Counted from the first letter of the stretch, positions 1 to 19,601 are shown. The stretch: DNA of 61,496 nucleotides from an uncultured Rhodobiaceae bacterium (GCA_913030915.1 CAJWEW010000006.1:1-61496), one strand, 5' to 3'. The notes: a model not told the origin generated them from the letters alone. A program made the numbers and translations.

Positions 1-747
1 AACAGGACAGGCTTTAGTAATCCACTACTGCTGCCGAGACCAACAGACATCGTAGCATCCATCTGGAAAATTTATGTTACACAAGGCAACGTATGGTACC
101 ATCTATGGGTAACTTTCAAAGAAGCAATGGTCGGTTGCTTTATTGGTTGTGTTATAGGTATCGGGCTAGCTGTCGCAGCTGTATTAAGTGATACTTTTAG
201 GCAGTTCTTAAAGCCATATATTATTATCGTTGAAGCTACACCTAGGATTGCCCTAGGCCCTATCTTCGTCACATGGTTTGGATTTGGTATGAGCTCAAAA
301 GTTGCTCTCGCTGCATTAGTTTGCTTCTTTGCGCCTTTTGTTAATACCATAACAGGACTACTTGGAGTTGAAGAGGAGTCATATGAACTTTTCCGATCCC
401 TTGGTGCGACACGAAGACAGGTGTTTTGGAAACTTATGATACCAACTGCCCTACCTACCATGAATGCTGGGCTTAAGCTAGCCGTTGGATCGGCCTTTGG
501 CGGTGCATTAGTGGCCGAGTTTATTTCAGCACAGGCCGGTATGGGAATCCTAATGGCACGTTATACAATGTCGCTAAATATGCCGTCTGCATTCGCAGGG
601 CTTTTATCAATTACTCTCTATGGCTTTATTCTTTTTAGAATAATGGAAATTATCGACAAGAGGGTTTTATATTGGTTAAGCGATGATCTAATGGCCAAGA
701 AAAGCGTAAAAAAAGAAACTAAAATTAGAGGGGAGCTAGGACTATGA
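1..747 (+). CDS. NitT/TauT-family ABC transporter permease (5' truncated)
   Basis: Frame is open from base 1 (NRTGFSNPLLLPRPTDIVASIW...). PRIALGP motif, EAA-like loop (ELFRSLGATRRQVF) and AEFI...GMG C-terminal motif. Confidence 0.9.
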   Translation, partial: NRTGFSNPLLLPRPTDIVASIWKIYVTQGNVWYHLWVTFKEAMVGCFIGCVIGIGLAVAAVLSDTFRQFLKPYIIIVEATPRIALGPIFVTWFGFGMSSKVALAALVCFFAPFVNTITGLLGVEEESYELFRSLGATRRQVFWKLMIPTALPTMNAGLKLAVGSAFGGALVAEFISAQAGMGILMARYTMSLNMPSAFAGLLSITLYGFILFRIMEIIDKRVLYWLSDDLMAKKSVKKETKIRGELGL

Positions 748-1616
748 GTGATATTGGTTCAGACGGCGTATTAGCCGGAGTAAAGGAACTTTCTCCTATA
801 CAAAAACTTGCTATGCATGGACTCGTCTTCCTAATTATATTTGGTGGATGGGAAGTTGGTGCAAGACTGGGTTATGTTAACGAATTAATCTTACCGGCTC
901 CAACATCTATCGCATACAGACTATATGAGATGTTTTTTGTTACAGGGTCAATTTACTGGCACTACATCATCACAATGTATGAAGCAACAATGGGCTTCAT
1001 TATTGGTGTGAGTATCGGGATGGGTTTAGCAATTACTGCTGCAATTAGCCCTGTCTTCAGAAGATACTGGGCACCGTATGCAGTCGTGTTTAATGTTACA
1101 CCAGGGATCGCAGTAACACCTTTCATTATTGCTTGGTTTGGATTTGGGTGGAGCTCAAAGATCGCACTAGCTGCACTTGTGTGCTTTTTCCCGCCTTTCA
1201 TCAACACATTGACAGGTCTACTACACATCGATAAGGATGCAACAGAATTGTTTAGATCACTTGGCTCGACCAAGAAACAGTTCTTCTGGAAGTGTCAAAT
1301 ACCTAGCGCACTTCCAATCATCATAGCGGGATTAAAACTTGCCATGACTGGTGCGTTAATTGGTACAATCGTTGCGCAGTTCTTCTCTGCATCAGAGGGT
1401 GTAGGAATTCTTATGCAAAGGTTTGCATTCAGATTAAACATGGATGGAAGTTTCGCTGCACTGATAGTAATGTCTCTTATGGGGCTAAGTCTATTCACAC
1501 TCATGGAATATATGGACTACAAAGTGCTGTACTGGAGAAGACACTCAAGAATGGAAGAGGTTGGATCCAAGAGAAAAAGAAAATGGCTTGCAGAGAATGG
1601 AGATTTTTCTGCGTAA
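744..1616 (+). CDS. NitT/TauT-family ABC transporter permease (second subunit)
   Basis: ILPAP, PGIAVTP and ELFRSLGS motifs. Clear paralog of the upstream permease, with ATGA overlap. Confidence 0.9.
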   Translation: MSDIGSDGVLAGVKELSPIQKLAMHGLVFLIIFGGWEVGARLGYVNELILPAPTSIAYRLYEMFFVTGSIYWHYIITMYEATMGFIIGVSIGMGLAITAAISPVFRRYWAPYAVVFNVTPGIAVTPFIIAWFGFGWSSKIALAALVCFFPPFINTLTGLLHIDKDATELFRSLGSTKKQFFWKCQIPSALPIIIAGLKLAMTGALIGTIVAQFFSASEGVGILMQRFAFRLNMDGSFAALIVMSLMGLSLFTLMEYMDYKVLYWRRHSRMEEVGSKRKRKWLAENGDFSA

Positions 1617-1636
1617 TCTATAAAATCTTTGAACAC

Positions 1637-1669
1637 AAAAACCCAACCTGAAATAGGTTGGGTTTTTTT
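1637..1669. terminator. Bidirectional rho-independent terminator
   Basis: AAAAACCCAACCT-gaaat-AGGTTGGGTTTTTTT perfect stem with A and T tails between convergent genes. Confidence 0.85.
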
Positions 1670-1672
1670 ATC

Positions 1673-2530
1673 TTATCTGTCTAAGAATACTTTTGCTTTT
1701 TTGTACATCGCATAATCAACCATCTTGTTCTCGAAGGTAATTGCAGCGAGTCCATTTTTCTCTGCCTCTTCAAAGACCTCAACCATTTTTGTATAATATT
1801 CAATCTCTTTTGGATCTGGCTCATATGCCTCTCTTGCAATTTTAATGTGACTTGGGTGTATTAACGTTCGCCCATCATAACCAATTCGCTTGCTCAGTTC
1901 ACATTCGGCCTTGAGTCCCTCGAGATCTGCAATACCGCCATAAGCCCCATCTAGCACATAAGGCATTTTCGCGGCCCTTGCCTCGACAAGAGATCTTGAT
2001 CGAGAATAATTTAATTCAAACCCATCAATTGACCAGTCGGATCTTAAATCTCGTTGAAGGTCGCCGTCCTCTGCACTACCAAAGACGATTGACTCCACTC
2101 GTTCCGCTGCTGAACATATATCAAAACATTTGATGACCCCAAGCGCTGTTTCAATTAATAAAAGGAGTTTAATAGAATTTTTCTCCAGACCTTTCTTTTT
2201 TTCTTCATCTGAAATAATTTCATCTACAAATTTTACCTGATCAACTGACTCAGCCATAGGCAATGCAATACCGTAAATATTCTTTTGTGTTACAGCCCTC
2301 AGGTCATTTTCAAGAAATTCTTTTTCACTATTAACCCTGACTAAAGCTGTGATATCAAGTTTTGGAATAATATTTTTTGAAATATTATCTCTGACTTCAC
2401 TTTTCAGATTCAAAGGAACAGCATCCTCAAAATCTATTATTATCCCGTCTGGCTCAAAACGAGATGCCTTTTCAATTAATTCCGGTTTATTACCGGGGGT
2501 ATATAGCGTTATTAATGGCTTATTATTCAT
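1673..2530 (-). CDS. CitE-like CoA-ester lyase (HpcH/HpaI aldolase/citrate lyase family)
   Basis: LYTPG...IIDFEDAV, VRVN, LIETALGV and GYDGRTLIHP motifs. Confidence 0.88.
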   Translation of the reverse strand: MNNKPLITLYTPGNKPELIEKASRFEPDGIIIDFEDAVPLNLKSEVRDNISKNIIPKLDITALVRVNSEKEFLENDLRAVTQKNIYGIALPMAESVDQVKFVDEIISDEEKKKGLEKNSIKLLLLIETALGVIKCFDICSAAERVESIVFGSAEDGDLQRDLRSDWSIDGFELNYSRSRSLVEARAAKMPYVLDGAYGGIADLEGLKAECELSKRIGYDGRTLIHPSHIKIAREAYEPDPKEIEYYTKMVEVFEEAEKNGLAAITFENKMVDYAMYKKAKVFLDR

Positions 2531-2545
2531 TTTTTATCCTCATAT

Positions 2546-3742
2546 TTAAATTATACCTTCTTCTTTTAATTTTTTAATTTCGTCAATTTTCATACCTAAT
2601 CGTTGCTTAAATATTTCATCATTATCTGCCCCGATCTCTTTTCCAAGAAATTTTATATTTCCTGGTGTTCTTGAAAACTTTGGAAAAATATTCTCTGTCT
2701 TAATTTTCTTACCATTATCAACAACAGTTGTCACCATTTCCCGGAATTGTGCGTGGATATTTTCCATTATATCTTGGATATTATAGACAGGGCCCATTGG
2801 CACGGACTCTTTATGAAGTAATTTGGATACCTCTTCAAGGCTATGCTCTGACATCCAATCAGATATATATCGATCCAGCTCTTTAACATGCACTATACGA
2901 TTTGCGTTATTTGAAAATTTTGGATTTTTTATCAATTCAGGTCTACCTATAACCTTAAAAAGTCTCTCGGCAGTTGTTTGTGTTGCCCCGGCAAGCGCCA
3001 CCCACTTCCCGTCTTTTGTTTTATAGGTATTTCTGGGCGCACTCGTTGGCGCAGTATTGCCCATTCTAGATGGTATCTCACCCGTCAAATCAAAAACCAT
3101 TGCATTTGGACCAAGAATAGAGAATAGACTCTCCCAGATGCTGACATCTATGACTTGACCTTTTTTTGATTCATTCACATCTCTATTATAAATTGCAAAC
3201 ATTGCAGATAATGCAGAATAAAATCCGGCGAGGGTGTCAGCTAAAGCAAATTGAGGTAATGTTGGCACGCCATCCTTTTCTCCAGTCATTTCAGCAAAAC
3301 CACTCATGGCTTCCATTAATGTTCCAAATCCCGGCTGATTAGCATAGGGACCACTCTGTCCATACCCACTTACTCTCACAATTACTAATCTTGGATATTT
3401 TTTTTGGAGCTCTGCAATATCAATACCCCAATCGTCTAGTCTACCTGGTCTAAAATTCTCTATAAACACATCAGCATCTTCTAATAGCTTAAATAAAATA
3501 TTTCTGCCTTTCTCTTTCGATATATTCAAAGTTATTAGCTTTTTGTTCCTTGCGTAGGTTTTCCACCATGGGTTTATACCATCTACTTCAAATCCAAAAT
3601 TCCGCAGATGATCTCCCTTTATAGGAGTTTCAATATGTAAAACCTCTGCGCCAAAGTCAGCTAATAATCTGCCACATAATGGAGCTGCAATGACCGTTGC
3701 GCACTCAACTACCTTCAGCCCAGTTAAAGCATCATTTTTCAT
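2546..3742 (-). CDS. Family III CoA-transferase (CaiB/BaiF)
   Basis: IAAP..LLADFGAEV, RNKK, ADVFIENFRPG, SGYGQSGPY, and catalytic Asp in LADT. Confidence 0.93.
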   Translation of the reverse strand: MKNDALTGLKVVECATVIAAPLCGRLLADFGAEVLHIETPIKGDHLRNFGFEVDGINPWWKTYARNKKLITLNISKEKGRNILFKLLEDADVFIENFRPGRLDDWGIDIAELQKKYPRLVIVRVSGYGQSGPYANQPGFGTLMEAMSGFAEMTGEKDGVPTLPQFALADTLAGFYSALSAMFAIYNRDVNESKKGQVIDVSIWESLFSILGPNAMVFDLTGEIPSRMGNTAPTSAPRNTYKTKDGKWVALAGATQTTAERLFKVIGRPELIKNPKFSNNANRIVHVKELDRYISDWMSEHSLEEVSKLLHKESVPMGPVYNIQDIMENIHAQFREMVTTVVDNGKKIKTENIFPKFSRTPGNIKFLGKEIGADNDEIFKQRLGMKIDEIKKLKEEGII

Positions 3743-3866
3743 TCACACGACTTTCTATGGTTAATATGTTGATAGAGTATTTCACAATTTTTTTAATTAT
3801 TACAAAACAGTGTATTTATTATAATATATCACAATATACAAACAACTTAAAGTCAGGGGAATTAAA

Positions 3867-5534
3867 ATGCCAAAAATGACAGGTGGAAGATTTATTGCAG
3901 AATTTCTTGAAAAATCTGGTGTAGATGCTGTTTTTTATGTACCAACCATATTAAGCAGACCATTGGCTGAGATGGATAATATGAAAATAAAAAGGGTCTT
4001 GGCTCACGCTGAAAAATCTGCCGCATATATGGCAGACGGTTATGCTAGAGCTTCTGGAAAGCCTGGAGTTTGCGCAGCTCAAGCAGTCGGCGCAGCAAAC
4101 TTAGCGGCTGGATTAAGAGATGCACTTCTTGGAAACAGCCCTATAGTTGCTCTAACCGGTGGCAGGAAATCAATGGAAAAACATAAAGGTGCTTATCAAG
4201 AGAATGATGATTACCCAATATTTGAAAAGCTTACCAAAGCAAATTTTCAGGTTGATCAAGTTGAGCGGTTACCTGATCTTATGCGCCAGGCATTCAGAGA
4301 AGCTACAACAGGAAATCCAGGTCCTGTGAATCTGCAGATGGCAGGTAATAATGGACAAATAGAAGATGACTATGCTGAGTTAGAGCTAATTGTTGAAGAT
4401 AGATATACAAAAACACCTTCACATAGATTTTCACCACCAATTGAAGAAATCAAACAAGCCCTCAGAGTGATAGAAAAGGCAAAAAAACCTGTGATCATTT
4501 TAGGTGGTGGGGCAAGAATATCGGATGCAGGAGAAGAGGCACATGAATTTTCCAAAAAAACAGGAATTCCAATTGCAACTTCAGTTGCGGCGTATAATTT
4601 AATTCCTGAAGATTACGAGCTATACATTGGGGTTCCTGGGACATATTCAAGAGAATGCACTAATAGAATTTTATCGGAAGCCGATCTATTTATCTTCATC
4701 GGATCTAGCACGGGTGGTCAAGTTACCCATTTTTGGAAAATTCCCGAAATAGGGACAAAAGTTATTCAGATTGGTATTGACCCAAGTGATTTAGGTAGAA
4801 ACTATCCAAATGAAATTAGTTTACTCGGTGACGCTAAAACTACATTGCAGCAAATTTTGAAAGAGAATTTAACTAAGTTAAAAATTGACGATTGGAGAGA
4901 AAAATCAACAAACATTGTAAATGAGTGGAAAGCCGAATTAAATAAACTGAGAGATTCTGACAGCAAACCAATCAGGCCAGAAAGACTTATGAAAGAGCTT
5001 TCTGAGGTAATTCCAGAAGACTCAATAGTTGCATCAGATACAGGTCACACTGCAATGTGGACAGTACAGAACTTGTGGATGAATAAGAAATGGAACTTTA
5101 TTCGTTGCGCTGGCTCGCTGGGCTGGGGTTTTCCTGCAGCTATCGGGGCTAAGTGTGCTTTTCCGGATAAGAATGTCTTTTGTCTAACAGGTGATGGTGG
5201 ATTGTGGTATCATTTCACCGAATTAGAAACGGCAGTTCGATCTGATATCCCAACAATCACAATTGTAAATAATAATAATGCTCTAAATCAAGAGTATGAT
5301 ATTTTTATGAATGCCTATGATGGTAAGCCATCAAATAGATGGACAGAGATGTGGTATTTTAACAAAGTTAGCTTTGCCGAATTAGCTAACAATATGGGTG
5401 CTTTTGGGATAAGGGTTACAGATCCTGTCGATATTAAAGAGGCAGTGAAAGAGGCAATGAAATCTAAAAAACCATCAATTGTTGAGATTGACGGTGATGT
5501 AAATGCTTTAGCGCCAACTGCTTGGTCAAAATAA
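3867..5534 (+). CDS. Thiamine diphosphate-dependent enzyme (acetolactate synthase-like family, substrate unknown)
   Basis: HAE..AAYMADGYAR and the GDGG...NN ThDP motif. The housekeeping ilvI is elsewhere in the window. Confidence 0.88.
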   Translation: MPKMTGGRFIAEFLEKSGVDAVFYVPTILSRPLAEMDNMKIKRVLAHAEKSAAYMADGYARASGKPGVCAAQAVGAANLAAGLRDALLGNSPIVALTGGRKSMEKHKGAYQENDDYPIFEKLTKANFQVDQVERLPDLMRQAFREATTGNPGPVNLQMAGNNGQIEDDYAELELIVEDRYTKTPSHRFSPPIEEIKQALRVIEKAKKPVIILGGGARISDAGEEAHEFSKKTGIPIATSVAAYNLIPEDYELYIGVPGTYSRECTNRILSEADLFIFIGSSTGGQVTHFWKIPEIGTKVIQIGIDPSDLGRNYPNEISLLGDAKTTLQQILKENLTKLKIDDWREKSTNIVNEWKAELNKLRDSDSKPIRPERLMKELSEVIPEDSIVASDTGHTAMWTVQNLWMNKKWNFIRCAGSLGWGFPAAIGAKCAFPDKNVFCLTGDGGLWYHFTELETAVRSDIPTITIVNNNNALNQEYDIFMNAYDGKPSNRWTEMWYFNKVSFAELANNMGAFGIRVTDPVDIKEAVKEAMKSKKPSIVEIDGDVNALAPTAWSK

Positions 5535-5555: not shown

Positions 5556-6794
5556 ATGTATTTTAATAAAAAAAGAGCAGATAAATTAATGGATCAATTT
5601 GATATTGATCTATTAATTGCTTCGACCCCTGAGAATGTTACCTACATCAGTGATACAGTAAGCTGGGCGCCGAAGGTTTATTCTTATTCTGTTGACATGT
5701 TCGCAACTTATTTCAGAGATAATAATCTCAACTCAAGCTTGATTGTGCCAAGTCAAGAGATGACTTATGTATCTGCATCGAATACGTGGATAAATGACTT
5801 TTATACTTACGGCGGAAAAAGTTCTCTCATTCAAGAAAGTGAGCAGGTTATAGAGTCAGCTGAAGAGAATGCGTATCTTAATTTACAAAATAGTGATGAT
5901 AAAAGATTTCCAACTGCTGTTGAGGCTTTGATCGCGTCAATCAAGAATAACACAACAAAGAAACTTAGGGTCGCTATTGATGAAGATAAAATGACTCATA
6001 AATCCACACTGAAACTTCAAGAAGAGTTGGATAACTGTGAATTGATACCTTCTTCTGATTTATTGAGGCTGATAAGAATGGTTAAGACTAATGATGAAAT
6101 TAGTGCAATGAAAGCAGCGGCAGATCTGAACGAAACCGCCTGTACAAAGGCATGTAATGAAATAAAGATTGGCATGAAAGAATTAGATATTGCAGAAATA
6201 TATGCCCAAGAAGTAGGAAAAGGGCTCGGTAAATGGTTGTGGTTTCATTTCGGTTCAGGAAGAAGGTCAGTTGGGATATTCCCACCTACAGAAAAAAAAA
6301 TACAGGTAGGTGAAATGTGGAAATTTGATGCTGGGCTATCTCTAAATAATTATCAAGCAGATACAGGTTGGGGAGGAGTTATAGGGCAACCAAATGCGCA
6401 GCAGAATATGATATGGGAAGCCACTCTGAGCGGATATGACGCAGCTATGTCTGTAATAAAAGAGGGTGTTAGACCGTCAGAGATACAGAAAGCAATGCTA
6501 AAGGGGACACAAGATGGTGGCTTAACCGACCATTCAGGAACTTTTGCTGGCCATGCTATTGGACTTGAGATGAGAGAATTACCTTACGTTCTAGGGAATA
6601 AAAAAATGGTGAATAGTTTATATCTGCCTGAAGATACTGATATACCATTACCTGAAAATACTGTTTTGTGTATTGAAAACCCGTGCCAAATATTTGGTGT
6701 AGGCGGGACCCAGATTGAGCAAACAATTATCGTTAAAAAAAATGGATACGAATTACTAACAAAACAAAATAGAAAACTTTGGATTATTGAGTAG
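5556..6794 (+). CDS. M24 (Xaa-Pro peptidase/creatinase fold) family hydrolase
   Basis: Creatinase-like N domain, RMVKT..EI, FDAG...YQAD, GHAIGLE, CIEN and QIEQ metal-ligand pattern. Confidence 0.85.
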   Translation: MYFNKKRADKLMDQFDIDLLIASTPENVTYISDTVSWAPKVYSYSVDMFATYFRDNNLNSSLIVPSQEMTYVSASNTWINDFYTYGGKSSLIQESEQVIESAEENAYLNLQNSDDKRFPTAVEALIASIKNNTTKKLRVAIDEDKMTHKSTLKLQEELDNCELIPSSDLLRLIRMVKTNDEISAMKAAADLNETACTKACNEIKIGMKELDIAEIYAQEVGKGLGKWLWFHFGSGRRSVGIFPPTEKKIQVGEMWKFDAGLSLNNYQADTGWGGVIGQPNAQQNMIWEATLSGYDAAMSVIKEGVRPSEIQKAMLKGTQDGGLTDHSGTFAGHAIGLEMRELPYVLGNKKMVNSLYLPEDTDIPLPENTVLCIENPCQIFGVGGTQIEQTIIVKKNGYELLTKQNRKLWIIE

Positions 6795-7629
6795 CCATAA
6801 CACGCTGAATAAATTCAGACATCGACTCTGCAATTTGATCCTCATATTCTGCCCAATCACTCCATGGTATTAAATCGACATCGACATCATCAATTGGTAG
6901 TTGAAATAACTCACTATTTCCAAGCATTTCATAAGCTGCAATACCGCTTACCGAGTTATGCGTATTATCATTGCCGGGAATTACTAAGGATGGGATAGTG
7001 ATGGAGCCTAGTTCATCTTGTGTGACCCCCATCACAGGATAGTCAGCTCCGGCGCGAAATTTAACCAATAAGTTTTCTTGTATTTTTATAAATTCATTTA
7101 CATCAAACTGCATTAATTCATTTTCTATATCTGGATTTGTTTTGATATATTCTGCAAACCTTGCAGTATCACAAACGCTTTTCATGCCACCAGACTTGGC
7201 TGCATTGATAAATACCTCATAATAGTTTTTTGGAAGATTGCTTGCTGCAAATTTACCACCTGTAACCCTCATGATAATCAACCCAATTAAATCCTTGGGG
7301 AATTCAAGTGCGTACATTAAGCTTGTTCTTGCACCAGAAGATGATCCAGATATAAAAATATGTTGTTCGTTCAATGATTTAAATAATTTCCTTAATTCCC
7401 TCGCCCAAGTAACTTCCTCAGTATGAGCATCATCAATCAGCATACTTGACTTACCTGTATTTCTTCTATCGTGAAGAAGTATTCTAATGTCATTTTTTGC
7501 AATCTTTTCAGCAAGTGATTTCATCTCAAGATACCCCCTTCTAGCCCCAGGCATAAGAGCTAAAATTGGCTTTCCTGAACCAATGATTTCATACTCAACA
7601 TTTACACCATCGATCAGTTTTTTTACCAT
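6784..7629 (-). CDS. Alpha/beta hydrolase
   Basis: HDRRNTGKS, nucleophile elbow GSSSGA, and PSLVIPGND..H. Confidence 0.85.
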   Translation of the reverse strand: MVKKLIDGVNVEYEIIGSGKPILALMPGARRGYLEMKSLAEKIAKNDIRILLHDRRNTGKSSMLIDDAHTEEVTWARELRKLFKSLNEQHIFISGSSSGARTSLMYALEFPKDLIGLIIMRVTGGKFAASNLPKNYYEVFINAAKSGGMKSVCDTARFAEYIKTNPDIENELMQFDVNEFIKIQENLLVKFRAGADYPVMGVTQDELGSITIPSLVIPGNDNTHNSVSGIAAYEMLGNSELFQLPIDDVDVDLIPWSDWAEYEDQIAESMSEFIQRVMATQ

Positions 7630-7696: not shown

Positions 7697-8674
7697 GTGA
7701 AAGCATATTTTACAGATATCGTGAATGGTGAGAGTAGGTTGGTTGCAGCAGATATAGATATACCAAAACCAGCCGATGATGAGATATTAATTAAAGTTAG
7801 AGCAACAGCATTAAACAGAGGGGGCTTTATCGTTGGTGGTGTGATGCATGGCGCATCAGCATACCCATCAGGTACTGAGGCTGCGGGTGAAATTGTTCAA
7901 ATCGGATCTAAAGTACAAAAATATAAGCTGGGAGACAGAATCATGGGGCGAGTGATCGGCACAAATTCTGGTTCATACTCAGAATATTGCACGATAAAAG
8001 ATTACCAGGCTATGTTTATTCCAAATGGATTTAGTTGGGAGGAGTCAGCGGCGATACCAGTAAGCTTCCTCGCAGCTTATGACGCACTAATTACTTACGG
8101 TAAGCTATCAAAGAATGACATAGTATTGATAACCTCAATCTCTTCAGCAATCGGCTCTTCTGCTTTAATAATTTCAAAAATTATGGGGGCAATGGTCATT
8201 GGTACATCAACTTCTGATCTAAAACTCGAAAAATTACGAAATTATGGAATGGATTTCGGTATAACCACGCCAGAGACGAATTTTGCAGATAAAATAAAAG
8301 AATTTACCGATGATGGAATAAACTTGGTTGTCAATTGCTTGGGGGGCAGTATTTTCAATGATGCAATGATGGCGTTAAAATTTAAAGGTATTTTTGTGAA
8401 TGTTGGCTACATGGATAATATTACAAATGTAGAAGTAGATTTAAAAAAAATTCATTCGCATAGATATAGTATTCATGGAATATCAAATGCATACGTTACT
8501 CGAAAAGATATAATTAAAACAGTTGAGGGTTTTAAGAAAAATGTCCTGCCATATTTAGGAAAAAATAAAGAAAAGCCAATTATTGACAAAATCTATAATT
8601 TTGATGATATAGATAAGGCTCGGAAGTATATGATGTCTAATAATCAAATCGGTAAGATAGTTGTGAAACTATAA
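7697..8674 (+). CDS. MDR-superfamily NAD(P)H:quinone oxidoreductase-like protein
   Basis: GroES-like domain (GTEAAGEIV..G...GDRI), EESAAIP and GKIVV C-terminus. GTG start. Confidence 0.85.
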   Translation: MKAYFTDIVNGESRLVAADIDIPKPADDEILIKVRATALNRGGFIVGGVMHGASAYPSGTEAAGEIVQIGSKVQKYKLGDRIMGRVIGTNSGSYSEYCTIKDYQAMFIPNGFSWEESAAIPVSFLAAYDALITYGKLSKNDIVLITSISSAIGSSALIISKIMGAMVIGTSTSDLKLEKLRNYGMDFGITTPETNFADKIKEFTDDGINLVVNCLGGSIFNDAMMALKFKGIFVNVGYMDNITNVEVDLKKIHSHRYSIHGISNAYVTRKDIIKTVEGFKKNVLPYLGKNKEKPIIDKIYNFDDIDKARKYMMSNNQIGKIVVKL

Positions 8675-8700: not shown

Positions 8701-9621
8701 ATGGTTAAAAAAGTTGGAATTGTTGGTATGGGATTGATGGGGCAAGCTTTCATATCAAATATGAGGAAATCACAATTTATGATCCAAGGATTTGATGTGG
8801 ACCCAAAAAGAATGGATGATCTGAAAGATCAAGGAGGCACCCCAGTTAATACTCCAGCAGATGCCGCCAAAGATGTTGACTGTGTCATTATGTCACTTCC
8901 TAATAGTAACATTGCTAGAGAAGCTGCAATTGGTGCAAACGGAATATCTCACGGTGTAAATACTGAAAATTTATATATATGCGATACCACAACCTCAAGA
9001 CCAGAAGATTCGGTGTCACTGTCCGCTGAACTGGAAAAAAAGGGTATAAAATTCTTAGACTCGGCAGTAAGCGGCACAAGTGTAATGGCTAAAGATGGCG
9101 ATTTAATTGTAATTGCTGGAGGAAAAAAAGAGGATTTTGAAGCCTGTACTGCTTATTTTGAGGGTTTTAGTCGAGGTGCTTATTACATGGGACCGGTTGG
9201 TTCAGGAGCAAGAACGAAGCTTGTTATAAATCTTATTTTAGCTGGCAATAGACTGGCTCTCGCGGAAGGTTTGGTCTTGGGGCATAAAGCTGGTCTCGAA
9301 CAAAATAATTTGCTTGAGGTATTAAAAGACAGCGCTGCATCGTCAAAGACAATGATTGATAAGGGTCCAAAAATGATTAATGCTGACTATTCAAAGCAAG
9401 GGCAAATAAAGACTTCTCTTAAAGATAATAGACTTATGATTGAGCAAGGGCAAATTCTTGGCTCACCAACATTATTGACTTCCGTTTTATCACAGATATA
9501 TCAAGCAGCATATGAAAAAGGCTATGCAGAAAAAGATACTGTGTCATTTTATGAAATAATGAGAGGTATGGCGGGGCTTGATGAACGCGAAGGAATTGAT
9601 GATGTTCCATTTGGTAAATAA
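8701..9621 (+). CDS. Beta-hydroxyacid dehydrogenase (3-hydroxyisobutyrate dehydrogenase family)
   Basis: GxGxMG Rossmann motif, LDSAVSG, catalytic Lys in GARTKLVIN. Strong AGGAG RBS. Confidence 0.9.
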   Translation: MVKKVGIVGMGLMGQAFISNMRKSQFMIQGFDVDPKRMDDLKDQGGTPVNTPADAAKDVDCVIMSLPNSNIAREAAIGANGISHGVNTENLYICDTTTSRPEDSVSLSAELEKKGIKFLDSAVSGTSVMAKDGDLIVIAGGKKEDFEACTAYFEGFSRGAYYMGPVGSGARTKLVINLILAGNRLALAEGLVLGHKAGLEQNNLLEVLKDSAASSKTMIDKGPKMINADYSKQGQIKTSLKDNRLMIEQGQILGSPTLLTSVLSQIYQAAYEKGYAEKDTVSFYEIMRGMAGLDEREGIDDVPFGK

Positions 9622-11862: not shown

Positions 11863-12426
11863 ATGTTTGATATTGATAAATTTATTCAAGAATGTGACAG
11901 CAGAATTGAAAAGAAGGATAATCACAAGGCAGTGATTGATATCCTCTCAAGGGCAGTTGAGAACCCAACAGATCTTTTTAGTTATTTTGGCGAACCAACG
12001 CAGGGTGGAATTCAAAAAATATACCAATCAGAGAAGTTTTCAATACTTAATGTTGTTTGGACTCCAAATATGACAATTATGCCTCATAACCACAATATGT
12101 GGGCGGCAATTGGTGTCTATTCTGGTAGAGAGGATAATATATTCTGGCGTAAATTAGATAACAGAGAACATGGAAAGATTGAGGCTGCAGGGGCAAAATC
12201 CCTAGAAAAGCACGATGCAGTTCCGCTAGGTAGTGATATCATTCACTCAGTAATTAATCCCACAAACAAATTCACATGTGCACTGCATGTCTACGGCGGA
12301 GATTTTTTTGAAACACCGAAAAGTGAGTGGGATACAGAAACACTTGAAGAGGCGGAGTATAAAGTTGAGCATTCTCATAAGATTTTTAGGGAAGCAAATA
12401 AAAGAGCTGAACTTGATCTAAAATAA
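11863..12426 (+). CDS. Cupin-fold, cysteine dioxygenase-like metalloprotein
   Basis: PHNH..WAAIGVYSGREDN, IHSV and LHVYGG give a 3-His thiol dioxygenase pattern. Confidence 0.75.
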   Translation: MFDIDKFIQECDSRIEKKDNHKAVIDILSRAVENPTDLFSYFGEPTQGGIQKIYQSEKFSILNVVWTPNMTIMPHNHNMWAAIGVYSGREDNIFWRKLDNREHGKIEAAGAKSLEKHDAVPLGSDIIHSVINPTNKFTCALHVYGGDFFETPKSEWDTETLEEAEYKVEHSHKIFREANKRAELDLK

Positions 12427-12431: not shown

Positions 12432-13421
12432 TTATATATCAACTATTTCTCCCATTTCACCAGACTTTACAATTGCTTCGAAAATCTCGATATTTGCTAT
12501 CATCTCCTCCGGTGTAATTGGGTAATCTTGACTATTGACGCAGGCGTCGTGCCATAATTCAAAATTTTCTAAGACTGTATTCGTATGTGGATGCGTTGTA
12601 ATAATCCTCTCGCCTCCTTGCTTACAGAAGACTAATTCACCCGGATCGTCGTGTTCAAAGTTATTAATCTCTCTAGCCTCAATCCAACCCTTATCTCCAA
12701 ATACAGTATATCTTCCATAAAATGGAGTAGCAATTGAGACTGAAACTATACCAGTAATACCATTACTAAACTCAATATTAGCCGACATAGTATCGATGCG
12801 AGGCTTTTCATAGGCAATGCTAGACATTGTTGAATAAACCCTCTTGGCTCCACCAAACATATGAACCATAAAATCTGTCAAATGAATACCTCTAGCAGTA
12901 AAACCACCTCCAGGGGCATCTTTTGGATTAAATCTCCAATTATCCTTACTCAGATTATCAAATAAATCATGACTAAAGTTAGTTTCGACATGCAGTACCC
13001 TGCCAATATCTCCGCGAGCTACATGATCAAAAAGACTCTTCATTGCCGGCTCAAATCTTCTTTCGTGACCAAGTCCCAATACAATTCCATTCTCCTTACA
13101 TGATCTGATGGCTTCCCTTGCATTTTCAGAGTTTAAGCAAAGTGGTTTTTCACAAAAAATGAATTTACCAGCTTTAGCTGCATCAATTATATGGGTGTGA
13201 TGAAGACGATTTGGCGTTGCTAAAATTACACTGTCTATGCTCGCATCAGACAAAACCGACGCATAACTATTGCGAAGCTCGATATTATACTCAACACCAA
13301 ATTCTTTGAGCTGTGATAAGTCTTGATCCACACCGCATACAACATTTATTTTTTTGCTTTTAGCAAGATTTTTTACAATTACCTTACCCCACCAACCAAG
13401 TCCAACAACAGCAGCTCTCAT
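12432..13421 (-). CDS. Gfo/Idh/MocA family oxidoreductase
   Basis: VGLGWWG, ATPN..H and CEKP motifs. Start placed at the ATG after a GAGGA RBS. Confidence 0.9.
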   Translation of the reverse strand: MRAAVVGLGWWGKVIVKNLAKSKKINVVCGVDQDLSQLKEFGVEYNIELRNSYASVLSDASIDSVILATPNRLHHTHIIDAAKAGKFIFCEKPLCLNSENAREAIRSCKENGIVLGLGHERRFEPAMKSLFDHVARGDIGRVLHVETNFSHDLFDNLSKDNWRFNPKDAPGGGFTARGIHLTDFMVHMFGGAKRVYSTMSSIAYEKPRIDTMSANIEFSNGITGIVSVSIATPFYGRYTVFGDKGWIEAREINNFEHDDPGELVFCKQGGERIITTHPHTNTVLENFELWHDACVNSQDYPITPEEMIANIEIFEAIVKSGEMGEIVDI

Positions 13422-13452
13422 ATTAATCCTCACGTGTAATTTTTTTACGTAA

Positions 13453-14670
13453 TCACAATTTCTTCTTTAATAGTAATAATAGCGTAATCAATGATATAAT
13501 ACCAAGTATTGAAAAAATTATCAGTGTATTTTCAATACCAAAAAAATCCCCAATTACGCCCATAAAAATTGCACTTACTGCGGCAAGACCAATGACAAGG
13601 ACTACCCATAAACTCATGACCCTACCACGATATGTGTCATTTAGCTCTAATTGGACTACCGCTTGAAGATCAATACCATTTATTGTCATTGAGAAGCCAA
13701 CGATAAAAATAGAAATCAGCGCGAGTGACCAACTACTTGACATCCCAAGAGTAATTATTGCAAGCAAACCAAGAAATGATGTGAAATAAACCCTAAAAGG
13801 GATACCTTTTTCTTGATCCTTTGATCTCCTCATCGCGATAAATATTGCTGCGACAAGAGCTCCTGCGCCTGCAGTAGCCATAAGATGACCTAGACCCTCA
13901 GGTCCCACATTATAAACACCCCCTGCTAGGGCTGGAAGAATTTCAACAGTTCCCCTCGCAAATAAGGAAAAGACAGCAGTAATTGCGCATGCTTCAAAAA
14001 TTATATTATGATTAATTGCGAACCTTGCACCATCTAGAAACTCTAGTAATATATTCTTTTTTTTACCTGGTTCTCCATCTTTTTTGGATACACTGATAGA
14101 TACTAAGGTTAACGGCATAGCAATAAGAAATAAAAAATTAATAAATATTGTTATTTCAAAACTTAGAACCTGTATCAATAATCCAGCAAGCGCAGGTCCA
14201 ATCAGCCTTGCTGAATTAAAATTGATACCATGAACAGCAATCGCATTCGCTAAGTTATTTCTATCAATTATTCGTGGCACAAGTGTCATACGCGTTGTCC
14301 GATCTGCTGATGTAAAAATACCAATGACAAGCGCAATAAGACTTAAATTATATATACTTAATAGCTTAAAATTGTAGAGGAACCATAAGATAAAAACAGT
14401 GATCGCAATTATTGACTGAGTGTATATGGCGAATTTCTTTATGTTCACCCTATCAATAACAACACCAAAAAATGGACCCGCAATTATAGTTGGGGCAAAT
14501 AATAAAAATGATAAAAAACCAACCCAAGTTGCAAGATTTGTTAATTCCCATGCTAGCCAACCAATAATGACTCGGTTAATCCAAATTCCGTTCATTGCAA
14601 AAAAATTGCCAGCGGTATATTTTTTAAACTCGCCACTTTTTAATGATGGAAAATTGAGTGATAAATACAT
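13453..14670 (-). CDS. MFS transporter
   Basis: About 12 hydrophobic segments, G...DR motif A, FNSARLIGP and YRGRVMS. Confidence 0.9.
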   Translation of the reverse strand: MYLSLNFPSLKSGEFKKYTAGNFFAMNGIWINRVIIGWLAWELTNLATWVGFLSFLLFAPTIIAGPFFGVVIDRVNIKKFAIYTQSIIAITVFILWFLYNFKLLSIYNLSLIALVIGIFTSADRTTRMTLVPRIIDRNNLANAIAVHGINFNSARLIGPALAGLLIQVLSFEITIFINFLFLIAMPLTLVSISVSKKDGEPGKKKNILLEFLDGARFAINHNIIFEACAITAVFSLFARGTVEILPALAGGVYNVGPEGLGHLMATAGAGALVAAIFIAMRRSKDQEKGIPFRVYFTSFLGLLAIITLGMSSSWSLALISIFIVGFSMTINGIDLQAVVQLELNDTYRGRVMSLWVVLVIGLAAVSAIFMGVIGDFFGIENTLIIFSILGIISLITLLLLLKKKL

Positions 14671-14823: not shown

Positions 14824-16035
14824 ATGCGTACACCGAGATTAAACAGAGACGGGCATCAATGGATTTATGACTGGATTGTAAAAGAAACAGGACGTGTATT
14901 TCATTGGGATGAAGAGGGTCGTGAGCTTCCAGGAACAGTAAAGAGTCATGGTCAAATATCGAAACATCTTGGTAGGCAGGCTCAAAGACTTGAAAAAGTC
15001 GCACAAGAAGAAGAGCAAGCGGGTCATACATCGACTGCATTTGACTTATACTACAGAGCATCAGCTAAGTTTGCAGCTGCTCAACATCCAGTATTAGAGA
15101 CGAACGATGAAAAGAAATATTTACACGGTCGATGCATAGCGAACTTTGAGAAAGTTATCGAACTCGCCCCTTATACAATTGAAAGAGTGGAAGTGCCATT
15201 CGAGGATATGCAGCTACAATGTAATTTTTTCTTATGTCCTGGAGTAGATGTCGCACCAACAATGATTTTTATTCCAGGATGTGACATGACCAAAGAGATG
15301 TGGCCAGATCCAAAAGTAGTTGAAGCGCACGCACGTGGTATGCATTTACTTGTTATTGATGGACCGGGACAAGGTATGAGTAATATCCGAAATCAAAAAT
15401 TAACACATGGTAATTATGAGAGAGCAGTTCTCAAAATTGTTGATTGGCTCGAAACAAGACCTGAGGTCGATAAAGATAAAATAGGCATCTTCGCAGTCTC
15501 AATGGGATCGCATTGGGGTCTCGAAGTTGCAGCATCTGGAGATCCAAGAATAAAAGGCGTTGTTGGACCCTGGGCTTCTTACCTTGATAAATATTACATA
15601 TTAGATACATTTTCACCGAGATATAAACAATTATTTGGATACTTAACTGGAGCAAAAAGTGAAGATGAGCTCGACAAGATTGTTGCACAAATGACAGTGG
15701 AAGGAAGAGAAAAAGATATTAAATGTCCAATTCTACTAACTGTTGGTGAATATGACTCTAGAAGTCCTGTCGAGCTTGTTTATAATTTCTACGAGAAGGT
15801 AAAATCACCTAAAGAGTTGTGGGTCTACGAGGATACATACCATCAAGCGGTTATGTTCAAGGGTACCGGACAAGATAGACATGACTGCCATATGATGTGC
15901 ATGGATTGGTTAGTTGATGTATTTAACGGTAAGATTAAAGCGGGTCATGATAAGAAAATGTTCCTCCGTACTAATGGGAGCGGCCCTAATAGCAAGCAAG
16001 GTGAAAACAAAGATGCTCTTCACTGGTGGGAGTAG
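14824..16035 (+). CDS. Alpha/beta hydrolase of the 2,6-dihydroxypseudooxynicotine hydrolase / FrsA-like family
   Basis: N-terminal helical domain (YYRAS), PGCDMTKE, DGPGQG, nucleophile AVSMG, GEYD and C-terminal His. ATG follows a GGGGGA RBS. Confidence 0.8.
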   Translation: MRTPRLNRDGHQWIYDWIVKETGRVFHWDEEGRELPGTVKSHGQISKHLGRQAQRLEKVAQEEEQAGHTSTAFDLYYRASAKFAAAQHPVLETNDEKKYLHGRCIANFEKVIELAPYTIERVEVPFEDMQLQCNFFLCPGVDVAPTMIFIPGCDMTKEMWPDPKVVEAHARGMHLLVIDGPGQGMSNIRNQKLTHGNYERAVLKIVDWLETRPEVDKDKIGIFAVSMGSHWGLEVAASGDPRIKGVVGPWASYLDKYYILDTFSPRYKQLFGYLTGAKSEDELDKIVAQMTVEGREKDIKCPILLTVGEYDSRSPVELVYNFYEKVKSPKELWVYEDTYHQAVMFKGTGQDRHDCHMMCMDWLVDVFNGKIKAGHDKKMFLRTNGSGPNSKQGENKDALHWWE

Positions 16036-16105
16036 ATATTCTGCATGATACTGTAAAAAAGATCTGTTTAATAATGTAAATACGTCAATTAGGAGATAAT
16101 GTGAT

Positions 16106-17194
16106 ATGACTCAACATGATATTGAATTAAAACCATATGGACCAACTGCAGGACGAGAACACCCAGCAGGACCAGCAAAAAGACCAAAAACCCTGACTGT
16201 TGACCTTCACAATCATATGCGAACTCCGGAGTCAGATGCTTTGGTAAAACCTCACCTACCCCAGGACTTTCATCCTTCAGTTGGTGTTGCAAGTGATTTA
16301 ACAAAACAAGTAAATAAAAAACAATCTGAAGATCGTGAAATACCATTTACTGATATCAATGTAAGACTTGAGCAAATGGATAAATCATTGCTGGATGTAT
16401 CGGCACTATCTTGTTCACCACAACAATTTTTTTATATGGTTGATAAAAATCTTTGTGCTGAGTCTGCAGAAATAATAAATAATAATATCGCGGCGACTGC
16501 AAAAACAAATCCTAAGAGGCTCGTTGGTCTTGGAACTGTTCCGTTACAAGATACTGAACTTGCAATTAAAGAACTAGATAGATGTGTCAATGAACTTGAT
16601 TTCAGAGGTATACAAATCGGTGCACGGGTGGGAAAAGAAGAGCTTTCAACGGAGAGACTGGAGCCTTTTTGGAAGAGGTGCGAGGAGCATGATATTCTAA
16701 TATTTATTCATCCATCATCATTCTACAGTGATCGCTTTGGTGAGCATTACATGCTAAATGTGATTGGGAATCCTCTTGATACAACAGTTGCTATCCACTA
16801 CTTGATATTTGATGGCGTTATGGAAAGATACCCAAATATCAAATTTTATCTATCACATGGTGGGGCATTTCCAGCTAGCTATGCAGCCCGCATGGATCAT
16901 GTATATGGCGCAAGAATTGACGGTCGACAAAAAATTTATAAAAAACCATCTACTTACCTAGAAAAGTTCTACTTTGACACTCTAGTTTTTTCAGTCGATC
17001 AATTAGAATTTTTAATAAAAAAATATGGAGCTGACCATGTGGCTATCGGGACAGACTATCCGGCTGATATGGCAGAGCATGACCCAGTTGAACACGTATA
17101 CCAAGTTGAAAGTATAACAGAAGAGGAACGAGAGAAAATTTGTGGATTGAATGCCTTAAAGCTACTTAATCTGTCAGAATCAGATTTTAAGTAA
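16106..17194 (+). CDS. Amidohydrolase_2 family protein (ACMSD-like decarboxylase/hydratase)
   Basis: DLHNH metal motif, FIHP, SHGG, GTDYP and NALKLL. AGGAG RBS. Confidence 0.87.
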   Translation: MTQHDIELKPYGPTAGREHPAGPAKRPKTLTVDLHNHMRTPESDALVKPHLPQDFHPSVGVASDLTKQVNKKQSEDREIPFTDINVRLEQMDKSLLDVSALSCSPQQFFYMVDKNLCAESAEIINNNIAATAKTNPKRLVGLGTVPLQDTELAIKELDRCVNELDFRGIQIGARVGKEELSTERLEPFWKRCEEHDILIFIHPSSFYSDRFGEHYMLNVIGNPLDTTVAIHYLIFDGVMERYPNIKFYLSHGGAFPASYAARMDHVYGARIDGRQKIYKKPSTYLEKFYFDTLVFSVDQLEFLIKKYGADHVAIGTDYPADMAEHDPVEHVYQVESITEEEREKICGLNALKLLNLSESDFK

Positions 17195-17223
17195 AGAAAC
17201 AGAAAATTCTCTCTTTAAATTAA

Positions 17224-18426
17224 ATGCTTAAAGATAATCTAAACGAAATATCAGTAGTATCTAATAAAGATGCAAACGAGCGCGCTTTATCTCTTATCCC
17301 TAAGATTAGAGAAATCAAGAGTAATATCAAATCATCTGATACCAATGTTCCCACATACATATTAGACTTACTTCACCAAGAGGGCTTATTTAGATACTTT
17401 CAGCCAAGACAATGGGGTGGATGGGAGCTAGATTTTGAAGCATGGTTCGATATTCCTGAAATAATTTCTCGAGCAGATTGCTCGACTGGCTGGATCGTTG
17501 CTAATATGGCCTCACATCACAGGACTCTTGCAGTATTTGATGAAAGAATTCAAAAAGAAATATGGGATGATAATCCAAATGCTCTGATCGCTGCAGGAAA
17601 TATCTATCAACAAGGAAGCGCAAAAAAAGTAAAAGATGGTGTAATCCTTACTGGATTGTGGAATTTCTGCTCTGGGATTGAGATTTCAGATTGGTCTTTT
17701 TTTGCTTTCATGCTGGATGACAATGGAACAAAAGATTGGCACCAGTGTATTCTTCATAAAAGTGAATATGAAATCTTAAATGATTGGGATACCTATGGTA
17801 TGAAGCAAACTGGTAGCTGTTCAGTTAAAATTAATGAATTATTTGTACCCGAGTATAAGTTACAATCATTCTCTGTAAACCGAGATGGCCATACATTCAA
17901 AGGTGTAGATCTAAATAAGAATTTAATGTATCAAATTCCTACAGCGTCAATTGGCGGGCACGGACTTGCCGGGTGCGCAATTGGCGGTGCCCAGTTATGC
18001 CTTGATTTACTTCTAGAATGGATCGAAAAAAGGTCAACTAGCACTTCAAATATGAAAATGTCAGATATCCCAACAATACATAACAGGTTGGGAGAAATTG
18101 CGTCCAGAATAGACGCTGCGAGACTTATATTAAGAAATGACTGTATTGAAGTTGAAAGACAAATGCATGAGAATGGACAAATTTCAACAAATAATAAACT
18201 AAAATATAAGAGGAATGCAGCTTATGCAGTCAAAATAACTCTGGAGTCTGTGTCTATCATGCAGCAGGTTTGTGGAGCAAATGGTATATACAATGGATCC
18301 CCTATAACAAGTGCGCTAATGGACGTCCAGGCTTGCTCATCTCATATTCACTTCAACCAAGATATGCAGTTTTCACAGTGGGGTAGAAATCTACTAAAAA
18401 ATGATTTCCAAAGCCTAACCTTATAG
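17224..18426 (+). CDS. Acyl-CoA dehydrogenase-fold flavin-dependent monooxygenase, oxygenase component (HsaA/C2-like)
   Basis: GLFR..QPRQWGG.E, ADCSTGW, W.FCSG, W.T.GM..TGS and C-terminal HIHF. Confidence 0.85.
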   Translation: MLKDNLNEISVVSNKDANERALSLIPKIREIKSNIKSSDTNVPTYILDLLHQEGLFRYFQPRQWGGWELDFEAWFDIPEIISRADCSTGWIVANMASHHRTLAVFDERIQKEIWDDNPNALIAAGNIYQQGSAKKVKDGVILTGLWNFCSGIEISDWSFFAFMLDDNGTKDWHQCILHKSEYEILNDWDTYGMKQTGSCSVKINELFVPEYKLQSFSVNRDGHTFKGVDLNKNLMYQIPTASIGGHGLAGCAIGGAQLCLDLLLEWIEKRSTSTSNMKMSDIPTIHNRLGEIASRIDAARLILRNDCIEVERQMHENGQISTNNKLKYKRNAAYAVKITLESVSIMQQVCGANGIYNGSPITSALMDVQACSSHIHFNQDMQFSQWGRNLLKNDFQSLTL

Positions 18427-18437
18427 AAAGGCAGCGC

Positions 18438-19601
18438 ATGCAATTACCGTTTGATCAATCTAAATTAGATAAATTACTGGATGATCACGGTATTGATTTC
18501 TTAATTATAAATGATAAGAATACAGCCCAATATTTATTAGGTGGGTATAAATTTTTTTTCTTTGCGCAAAAAGACTCAATTGGTATTAGTCGTTATTTAC
18601 CAACTATTGGATACCCAAAAGGTAGGCCTGAAATGGCATTCTACATTGGACACATGTTAGAAGGTCAACAGCAAGAAGTTGAGTCATTATGGATTAAAGA
18701 CATAAAGAATATACAATGGAATACCAGTCAAGCGGGGCATGAAGCGGCAAAGAAAGTGATTGAACTCGGGTATTCGAAAAAGAGAATTGGAATTGAGCTT
18801 TGTAATACACCAACAGATACATACATTGCTCTCAAGAAAAATCTTCCAGATGTTGAATTTGTTGATGTGCTAGTTTTGATGCAAGAGCTGCGTTCAGTCA
18901 AAACAGACCAAGAGCTTGAGTTGTTAAAAAAGGCCTCAGATAATATTACTGCTTGCATGAAAAAGGTCATGACAGTGACAAAACCCGGTGCAGATACGTA
19001 TTCAATTGCCCAAGCGCTAAAAGAAGAAGAAACAAAATTAGGTATGAATTTTGAGTACTGCCTTGTAGCTGCTGGAAAATCATATAATCGTACCCCTTCA
19101 AAAAAACTTTCTTGGAATAAGGGTGAAATTCTATCGCTCGACTCAGGCGCAAATCTAAAAGGTTACCTTGGTGACTTGTGTCGAATGGCGGTGATGGGTA
19201 AACCTTCAAGCAAGATGCGGGACTTACTATCACAAGTCCGCGCAATTAATGACGCCCCTCGTTCTGTGATTAAATCTGGAATAACGGGTAATGAAATAAT
19301 AGAAGCAGCAAATCACGAGATATCAAAGTGTGATAAAACTCTCAATTTTAAATTTGTTGCTCATGGTATGGGCATGATCCAACATGAAGCGCCCCACATA
19401 TATGATAAAGGTGTCATACCATACCCTGCCCCTTACAAAGATAAATCTCTCGAGTCAGGAATGGTGTTATCCATTGAAACTGATCTCAAATATGATGATG
19501 TGGGGTTTGTTAAACTAGAAGATACTGTGGTAATCAGAAATGATGGATTTGAAGCCTACGGTGATGATATCCGTGATTGGGTTTGTAATGAGAACGTCTA
19601 A
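18438..19601 (+). CDS. M24 (Xaa-Pro peptidase/creatinase fold) family hydrolase
   Basis: LRSVKT..EL, LDSG...YLGDLCR, AHGMG..HEAP, SIET and KLEDTV. Confidence 0.87.
   Translation: MQLPFDQSKLDKLLDDHGIDFLIINDKNTAQYLLGGYKFFFFAQKDSIGISRYLPTIGYPKGRPEMAFYIGHMLEGQQQEVESLWIKDIKNIQWNTSQAGHEAAKKVIELGYSKKRIGIELCNTPTDTYIALKKNLPDVEFVDVLVLMQELRSVKTDQELELLKKASDNITACMKKVMTVTKPGADTYSIAQALKEEETKLGMNFEYCLVAAGKSYNRTPSKKLSWNKGEILSLDSGANLKGYLGDLCRMAVMGKPSSKMRDLLSQVRAINDAPRSVIKSGITGNEIIEAANHEISKCDKTLNFKFVAHGMGMIQHEAPHIYDKGVIPYPAPYKDKSLESGMVLSIETDLKYDDVGFVKLEDTVVIRNDGFEAYGDDIRDWVCNENV

Follow-up and report, generated by a model that had tools for sequence, protein, structure and literature searches.

Gene content and layout of the catabolic block

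The 61,496-bp stretch analyzed here (the window) is the entire contig C6 of a 1.31-Mb, 93% complete genome (G000) from an uncultured Rhodobiaceae bacterium, whose nearest named relatives carry the labels OCS116 cluster and Hyphomicrobiales. Its first 19,601 bp hold 18 consecutive open reading frames (ORFs) that occupy 96.5% of that sequence, and, as an earlier note made from the DNA alone had proposed, all are transporters or catabolic enzymes, none a regulator or mobility gene (Table 1). Pfam backs the named family for 17 of the 18, and the catabolic character of the families is supported; the remaining gene, a 187-aa cupin, has no Pfam match, and its PDB matches are thiol dioxygenases (E 7e-6). 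Housekeeping counterparts of two of the enzymes, ilvI and aminopeptidase P, lie elsewhere in the window, as the note had stated; ilvI is a thiamine diphosphate (ThDP) enzyme that adjoins ilvH-, ilvC-, and leuA-like ORFs. We find that the block is genuine and, as a set of orphan modules belonging to the core of the lineage, undescribed, and that as a whole it provides no evidence of one new pathway.

None of the 18 genes reaches an NCBIfam cut-off or has high identity to a characterized pathway, and the best solved relatives are all remote: 2,6-dihydroxypseudooxynicotine (DHPON) hydrolase (E 7e-14), DHDPS (E 1e-20), ACMSD (E 4e-52), HsaA-type monooxygenase (E 1e-38), prolidase for M24b (E 4e-25), and AHAS for the ThDP enzyme (E 1e-64). 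The catalytic motifs are complete in the hydrolases, the amidohydrolase, both M24 enzymes, the ThDP enzyme, and the cupin; the roles of the residues listed in Table 1 we take from family knowledge. Pfam assigns none of the 18 genes as an aldehyde dehydrogenase, a Rieske or extradiol dioxygenase, a CoA ligase, or a flavin reductase, and the block would therefore depend on genes elsewhere.

Table 1. Features of the window and two unlinked genes of G000; coordinates are window positions unless a contig is named.
Feature	Coordinates	Strand	Evidence and remarks
NitT/TauT-type ATP-binding cassette (ABC) permease A	1..747	+	PF00528; 5' truncated by contig start
NitT/TauT-type ABC permease B	744..1616	+	Pfam; 47% to permease A
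14-bp hairpin, likely two-way terminator	1637..1667	.	A/T runs both sides; pattern match only
CitE/HpcH-family C-C lyase	1673..2530	-	PF03328
Family III CoA-transferase	2546..3742	-	PF02515; paired with citE in G173 and L122 too
ThDP enzyme, not biosynthetic AHAS	3867..5534	+	Glu49, GDG...NN motif; 47% paralogue on C19
M24 hydrolase a	5556..6794	+	D258, D269, H333, E374, E388
Alpha/beta hydrolase	6784..7629	-	GSSSG, Ser97
Zinc-free MDR (quinone-reductase-like) oxidoreductase	7697..8674	+	Pfam; two Cys only
Beta-hydroxyacid dehydrogenase family (bHAD)	8701..9621	+	Lys173; 61% paralogue on C7
DHDPS/NAL-fold aldolase or hydratase-aldolase	9637..10605	+	Lys175 kept, Phe148 for catalytic Tyr, G-N-I-A-E motif
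FMN alpha-hydroxyacid oxidase/dehydrogenase	10602..11771	-	SNHGGRQ
Thiol-dioxygenase-like cupin	11863..12426	+	H75, H77, H128; H142-x-Y144
Gfo/Idh/MocA oxidoreductase	12432..13433	-	Pfam; 15 BLAST paralogues in genome
MFS transporter (MFS_3/EntS-like)	13453..14670	-	Pfam
FrsA/DHPON-hydrolase-like alpha/beta hydrolase, predicted C-C hydrolase	14824..16035	+	Ser226-Asp311-His340
ACMSD-like amidohydrolase-2, predicted decarboxylase or hydratase	16106..17194	+	H35, H37, H202, H251, R262, D317
ACAD-fold two-component flavin monooxygenase (HsaA/C2-like)	17224..18426	+	Flavin reductase in trans
M24 hydrolase b	18438..19601	+	D235, D246, H309, H316, E347, E361; travels paired with monooxygenase
Zn/Mn ABC transporter	19692-23629		Behind block
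tRNA	30993-31065		
ilvI	34267-36027		Housekeeping ThDP enzyme
tmRNA	43187-43520		Permuted, alphaproteobacterial
Aminopeptidase P	50404-52170		
FtsZ	57856-59682		608 aa; long C-terminal part past FtsZ domains
NMT1-type substrate-binding protein	C2:77962-79026 (L072:17962-19023)		Stand-alone
Flavin reductase	C3:80784		

Strand orientation divides the genes into nine blocks (++/--/++/-/+++/-/+/--/++++), with strand switches at 8 of 17 junctions vs 322 of 1,160 genome-wide by our own crude ORF calls. With four divergent and four convergent junctions, and the hairpin behind permease B, the genes are not co-directional as those of a single operon would be. A promoter scan returned 62 putative sites vs 66.9 ± 7.6 in shuffled sequences and was thus uninformative, and an Rfam scan found no RNA match within positions 1 to 19,601.

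The earlier note had also treated the lack of regulators as meaningful, which is not borne out. Matches to five regulator families in the 1.31 Mb of G000 amount to one LysR, no GntR, no IclR, one TetR, and one or two MarR proteins, and two complete genomes of the same genus (G005 and G013) are similarly poor. The probability that an 18-gene run contains no regulator at all is 0.95 if the genome encodes four and still 0.57 if it encodes 40, so chance alone gives this result and the absence is ordinary for such a genome. Low regulator numbers are a trait of streamlined oligotrophs, according to the available portion of one description (PMC13198564).

BLAST paralogues outside the block are present in the genome for 14 of the 18 genes, and several families are expanded genome-wide, with seven CoA-transferases, eight ThDP enzymes, seven amidohydrolases, four DHPON-type hydrolases, and at least 16 Gfo proteins. 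Comparable regulator-free runs of the same families, examined with 85 selected proteins, lie on contigs C15, C19, C11, and C30. The module on C19 (C19:113-10636; L076) encodes a bHAD, a 2-oxoacid dehydrogenase complex, an M24 hydrolase, a ThDP enzyme (47% identical to that of the window), a cyclase, an FrsA-like hydrolase, and a 2-hydroxyacid dehydrogenase.

Conservation within the family and recurrence outside it

All four of the same-genus genomes examined (G005, G012, G013, and G009) carry the 18 genes in identical order. A genome of a second genus (G015) has all 18 plus a four-gene insertion upstream of the monooxygenase, encoding a three-subunit Mo-hydroxylase and TauD (L018:16843-L019:6055), and behind M24b it carries a further alpha-hydroxyacid oxidase and TauD; G018 has 16 block genes before its contig ends. 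Upstream of the block, relatives carry genes for an ABC ATPase, a CMD-like protein, and an aldo-keto reductase, together with infA, tuf, and rpoBC. Permease A, which in relatives is 291 aa long and follows the ATPase gene (both complete in L029), is 88 to 100% identical in small-genome relatives and 76% identical in G017. The GC content at third codon positions (GC3) is 0.30 in the block vs 0.29 ± 0.03 in the genome. The best-conserved enzyme is the FrsA/DHPON-like hydrolase, which is matched in 18 of 18 family genomes (in G007 only through a 38% paralogue) and in none of the 22 other families of the order; an ESM Atlas search with it returned FrsA-like clusters only. Because order and position are the same across the genus and family, composition is host-like, and mobility genes are absent, the block is vertically inherited core DNA of the family. 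The random patchwork that the note had raised against its own proposal is thus not what we find, the set being conserved across the family. A recent horizontally acquired island was rejected as well, since presence is not patchy, GC3 is host-like, and no Rfam RNA lies in the block. At the site of the Zn/Mn ABC transporter behind the block, G005, G009, and G015 carry a distant paralogous system (24 to 42% identity).

Two larger-genome relatives show where the module boundaries lie. G017 (4.1 Mb) keeps 12 block genes within ∼29 kb, where restriction-modification genes break up the run and RidA, M20, CMD, and EamA genes have joined it; its M24a reads in three pieces or frames. The interrupting DNA (L020:1-6513, L070:6157-9902) has type I restriction-modification-like and McrBC genes and insertion sequence remnants. 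The fragmented G016 has 10 block genes on two contigs, between which the ThDP gene is split. In both genomes the monooxygenase-M24b pair is on a separate contig, following a cyclase-family gene in G017, and the last four genes of the block can be read as two older pairs (hydrolase with amidohydrolase, and monooxygenase with M24b) that were joined recently. The blocks of L108, L109, and G016 lack M24a, and that of G016 lacks the aldolase as well. The amidohydrolase adjoining the hydrolase in G016 and G017 is a different paralogue from that in the window, whose copy groups with a G017 copy located elsewhere (98/94); monophyly of the in-block amidohydrolases is rejected (approximately unbiased [AU] test, p = 0.017).

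Outside the family, the block dissolves into pairs. Among 400 sampled alphaproteobacterial genomes, matches to permease B were found in four (one close, 60%), to the ThDP enzyme in seven, and to the aldolase in 18 (one close, 63%). M24b has no match at E <= 1e-60 in these 400 genomes, and the monooxygenase-M24 pair is therefore not traceable beyond the family. Both close matches are in one genome of another family (G173), which has relatives of eight block genes at 43 to 71% identity (permeases, 60%; aldolase, 63%; bHAD, 71%; CitE, 56%; CoA-transferase, 62%) scattered over C5:25-29k, 40k, 79-81k, and 204k and C7:138k; only the CoA-transferase with CitE and the ThDP enzyme near bHAD remain together, and searches of G173 for M24a, M24b, and the cupin found none of them. 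Of 52 metagenome loci with permease B at <70% identity, two carry block enzymes at >=40%: L122 (CoA-transferase, 68%; CitE, 71%) and L119, which looks like a family member; with L119 set aside, one outside permease locus in 51 carries another block enzyme. None of 15 outside loci with the hydrolase at 68 to 72% carries another block enzyme at >=40%. Plasmid searches with four proteins recovered relatives at 32 to 43% only, in unrelated settings. A 72% hydrolase relative is also present in a record titled as a Klebsiella pneumoniae metagenome-assembled genome (L045), in a setting like that of a betaproteobacterial locus (L057), and this may be a mis-binned contig. The recurrence in distant taxa by which the note proposed to judge the cluster thus fails for the whole set and holds for pairs, and we reject a single catabolic operon or pathway cluster, given that the genes are not co-directional and only pairs recur in unrelated taxa.

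A narrower version, in which part of the block is one pathway, deserves more consideration. The 10 to 12 genes common with the large-genome relatives (the transporter, CitE, the ThDP enzyme, both alpha/beta hydrolases, the MDR oxidoreductase, bHAD, the aldolase, the amidohydrolase, and the alpha-hydroxyacid oxidase) could together make up a single undescribed route for one acid, N-heteroaromatic or aromatic, that the twin-permease system imports, with the other six genes as later additions, a possibility that we take seriously and yet consider doubtful. Their order is largely kept in G017 and G016 at 45 to 76% identity, where they are accompanied by additional genes of a kind expected in such pathways (RidA, M20, and CMD); G173, the only one of the 400 genomes with a close permease or aldolase, has close relatives of these two and of bHAD, CitE, and the CoA-transferase; and the paralogous run on C19 places M24, ThDP, cyclase, and hydrolase genes near a bHAD. 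However, a pathway of this sort is difficult to reconcile with nine strand blocks, with the absence of four enzyme types from the 18 genes (see above), with an M24a and an aldolase that can be lost and an amidohydrolase that can be swapped, and with the scarcity of other block enzymes at outside loci (1 of 51 with the permease, 0 of 15 with the hydrolase).

An unlinked binding protein and clues to the substrate class

The note had expected a substrate-binding protein (SBP) upstream of the permeases. No binding protein is encoded there in relatives, which have the ATPase, CMD-like protein, aldo-keto reductase, infA, and tuf instead. An SBP gene lies directly behind permease B in G173 and is present in 29 of the 52 outside permease B loci, and the best match of the G173 protein in G000 is the stand-alone NMT1-type protein on C2 (Table 1), which is 95% identical in G005; in complete relatives, ∼62 kb separate its gene from those of the permeases. 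From the pairing in other genomes, this SBP is likely the partner of the window's permeases, and the components of a NitT/TauT ABC importer would then be complete, with an ATPase upstream in relatives, the permeases, and the SBP in trans.

The SBP sequence alone has no PDB match, and a profile gave four weak PDB matches. A structural model (predicted local distance difference test score 90, from an alignment of 20 sequences) ranks thiamine- and formylaminopyrimidine-binding proteins first by template modeling (TM) score (0.74 and 0.73), with TauA/SsuA lower (0.66), which points weakly to thiamine- or pyrimidine-type binders. The top fold matches are ThiY and thiamine-binding NitT/TauT SBPs (3ix1, 4nmy), from which the system differs in its low identity (13 to 14%), in having two different permeases, and in its catabolic rather than salvage neighbors. 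In four metatranscriptome runs from four studies, RNA contigs cover 25 to 27 of 30 bins of the block. In these same runs, which were not selected with the SBP gene, RNA contig depth is 57 to 2,763 on that gene vs 0 to 51 on genes upstream of it, a hint of high SBP transcription by what is a poor measure.

Combined with the twin-permease transporter and this unlinked, apparently highly transcribed SBP, the 10 to 12 ancestral enzymes could constitute an undescribed pathway for an N-heteroaromatic acid abundant in seawater, a suggestion that we hold as tentatively as the one-pathway core itself. If true, the pathway would give OCS116 a defining niche in terms of carbon and nitrogen, and other uncultured marine alphaproteobacteria would have it too, with its genes scattered.

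Neighborhoods in other genomes offer clues to the type of substrate. Among the 52 permease B loci, 16 have an ACMSD-like enzyme and 19 an FAA-family hydrolase, and one or the other is present in 19 of the 24 loci of at least 8 kb; these loci also hold enolase-family, CoA-transferase, and thiolase genes, plus sugar-acid dehydratases (UxuA, IlvD/Edd). Relatives of the aldolase at 31 to 35% identity adjoin Mo-hydroxylase and 3-hydroxyanthranilate dioxygenase genes, and orthologues of the hydrolase adjoin two or three cyclase-family amidohydrolases and amtB-glnK. The monooxygenase, amidohydrolase, and conserved hydrolase are alike in that the substrates of their best solved relatives are aromatic or pyridine-derived. 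The proposal of aromatic or N-heterocyclic substrates is therefore upheld to the extent that neighborhood and fold evidence lean toward (hetero)aromatic acids, and the compounds imported and degraded are likely small ring-shaped, probably N-containing, organic acids.

Two gene sets in these surroundings are of separate interest. A cluster recurring in cultured and uncultured Alphaproteobacteria (L102:6719-17196, L219, L220, and L222) encodes a Mo-hydroxylase large subunit with DHDPS-like, 3-hydroxyanthranilate-dioxygenase-like, alpha/beta hydrolase, and aspartate-dehydrogenase-like proteins; a literature search found no paper on it. The set at C15:18133-34000 of G000 (L075), a candidate N-heterocycle module, has SDR, cyclase, and HisD-like genes with P-II, and in other alphaproteobacteria (L051 to L059) C15-type genes, two or three cyclases, and amtB-glnK flank the orthologue of the window hydrolase.

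Alternatively, the genes may serve many small and mutually unrelated compounds (organic acids, thiols, sugar acids, and amides) and be neighbors only through deletion of intervening DNA, with no common ring chemistry. The families are broad and rich in paralogues, the cupin resembles thiol dioxygenases, sugar-acid routes, too, draw on the Gfo, bHAD, aldolase, and FAA-hydrolase families, and permease loci do include UxuA, IlvD/Edd, and enolase-family genes. Nonetheless, the aromatic and pyridine-derived substrates of the solved relatives and the recurrence of the neighborhoods with N-heterocycle markers make this explanation unlikely.

A proposed mosaic of modules and its relation to known pathways

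We propose that the block is a mosaic of several modules for (hetero)aromatic acids that serves several ring compounds, and we place the probability of this at roughly 0.6. The modules were likely gathered as the genome shrank, are likely expressed without local regulators, and, together with paralogous modules located outside the block, are predicted to break down small (hetero)aromatic acids. From family chemistry, the twin-permease ABC system and the SBP encoded ∼62 kb away would import a small, probably N-heteroaromatic, acid. The monooxygenase, supplied by the flavin reductase on C3 in trans, would hydroxylate or open the ring, and M24b would then hydrolyze the resulting amide. The FrsA/DHPON-type hydrolase may catalyze C-C hydrolysis of an acyl side chain or a 1,3-dicarbonyl, and the neighboring amidohydrolase may decarboxylate or hydrate a ring acid. 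Fragments in the form of 2-oxo and 2-hydroxy acids would fall to the ThDP enzyme, the aldolase, the alpha- and beta-hydroxyacid dehydrogenases, and the MDR oxidoreductase, and the CoA-transferase and CitE lyase would together activate a malate- or citramalate-like hydroxy acid and split it into acetyl-CoA and an oxo acid. The modules need not share one compound. Of the note's phrase "one, or a few interleaved, pathways," the second part is close to this finding, and the single pathway is not supported.

Several considerations weigh against the mosaic proposal. First, 10 to 12 genes are kept together from 4-Mb to 1.4-Mb family members at 45 to 76% identity, which may reflect a functional core instead of passive linkage. 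Second, the direction of gathering during streamlining is based on two larger-genome relatives only, one of which (G016) is 85% complete while the other (G017) has its M24a in three pieces, and the amidohydrolase tree has 18 rows, with the group behind the AU result picked after the tree was seen. Third, there is some redundancy among the outside loci, many of which are short (24 of 52 are at least 8 kb long), such that the counts are not independent, and the regulator count covers the LysR, GntR, IclR, TetR, and MarR families. Finally, the fold ranking of the SBP is based on 13 to 18% identity and small TM differences, and the RNA contigs indicate presence only, with DNA carry-over possible and uncovered bins proving nothing.

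It is very improbable that the block represents, in diverged form, a characterized pathway such as that for homarine, nicotine, 3-hydroxyanthranilate, auxin, or itaconate. The monooxygenase and adjoining peptidase-fold gene do resemble homB-homC, DHPON hydrolase and ACMSD are top PDB matches, and the CoA-transferase with CitE is reminiscent of Ict/Ccl; but the partner enzymes of each route are missing from the block, all matches are remote, and no NCBIfam cut-off is reached.

The individual candidates were rejected on similar grounds. By its intact Ser-Asp-His triad and its family profile, we assign the window hydrolase to the FrsA/DHPON type, together with 2,6-dihydroxypseudooxynicotine hydrolase (2jbw) and the C-C-cleaving Ayg1/FrsA hydrolases. 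The relation to 2jbw is remote (E 7e-14), and with no other nicotine-pathway enzyme recognized in the block, the nicotine pathway was rejected. In the 3-hydroxyanthranilate meta-cleavage route, 3-hydroxyanthranilate (3-HAO) dioxygenase and aminomuconate-semialdehyde dehydrogenase stand beside ACMSD. The metal ligands and second substrate Arg of the window amidohydrolase align with ACMSD and other amidohydrolase-2 decarboxylases (2wm1, 2hbv; LigW, gamma-resorcylate decarboxylase) at E 4e-52, whereas the PWLVG stretch reads LNVIG, the protein is one of seven paralogues, and no 3-hydroxyanthranilate dioxygenase is in the block. The route was rejected because its partners are absent from the block, 3-HAO being found only beside the 31 to 35% aldolase relatives in other genomes. 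The monooxygenase shares the ACAD-fold oxygenase component of HsaA and p-hydroxyphenylacetate 3-hydroxylase C2 (E 1e-38), although it scores 211 and 174 against cut-offs of 450 and 650 and its reductase is unlinked. Itaconate and citramalate degradation (Ict, Ich, Ccl) combines a family III CoA-transferase and a Ccl/RipC-type lyase with a MaoC hydratase; the pair is present here, but the lyase scores 108 vs 375 with the Ccl/RipC model (175 vs 443 with that of citE) and the block has no hydratase, and this route was rejected. A true DHDPS (dapA) was rejected for the aldolase, in which Phe148 replaces Tyr and the score is 89.5 vs 206 bits.

Two rejected candidates were compared with published systems, each from the available part of its description. 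The iad auxin pathway is defined by the Rieske oxygenase IadCDE, the acyl-CoA synthetase IadF, and the thiolase IadG (PMC12633357), and none of these types is among the 18 genes. The homarine operon homABCDER (PMC13236597), compared by gene layout only, is similar in being devoted to marine N-heterocycle catabolism and in following a flavin monooxygenase with a peptidase-fold enzyme; only the monooxygenase and M24 are present in the block, which has no flavin-supplying protein, aldehyde dehydrogenase, or regulator. A literature search, with most subscription journals outside its scope, found no description of the block.

The closest parallel in overall character is with the paralogue-rich catabolic sets of SAR202, which in the available part of that report (PMC5395668) are proposed for dissolved organic matter and share expanded CaiB/BaiF CoA-transferases, flavin monooxygenases, and dehydrogenases. 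Unlike SAR202, the organism here is a streamlined alphaproteobacterium of 1.4 Mb, hydrolases and lyases are central rather than FMN/F420 monooxygenases, and part of the set has become a fixed, ordered block of the core genome. What is gained in practice is a short list of testable targets, namely, the SBP, which is the best handle, the highly conserved hydrolase, and three travelling gene pairs (monooxygenase with M24b, hydrolase with amidohydrolase, and CoA-transferase with CitE). OCS116 is described, in the accessible portions of two time-series reports (PMC7575717, PMC8957919), as an oligotroph whose numbers increase following deep mixing and which may draw on semi-labile organic matter, and a genome this small that retains such genes in its core must have a use for them.

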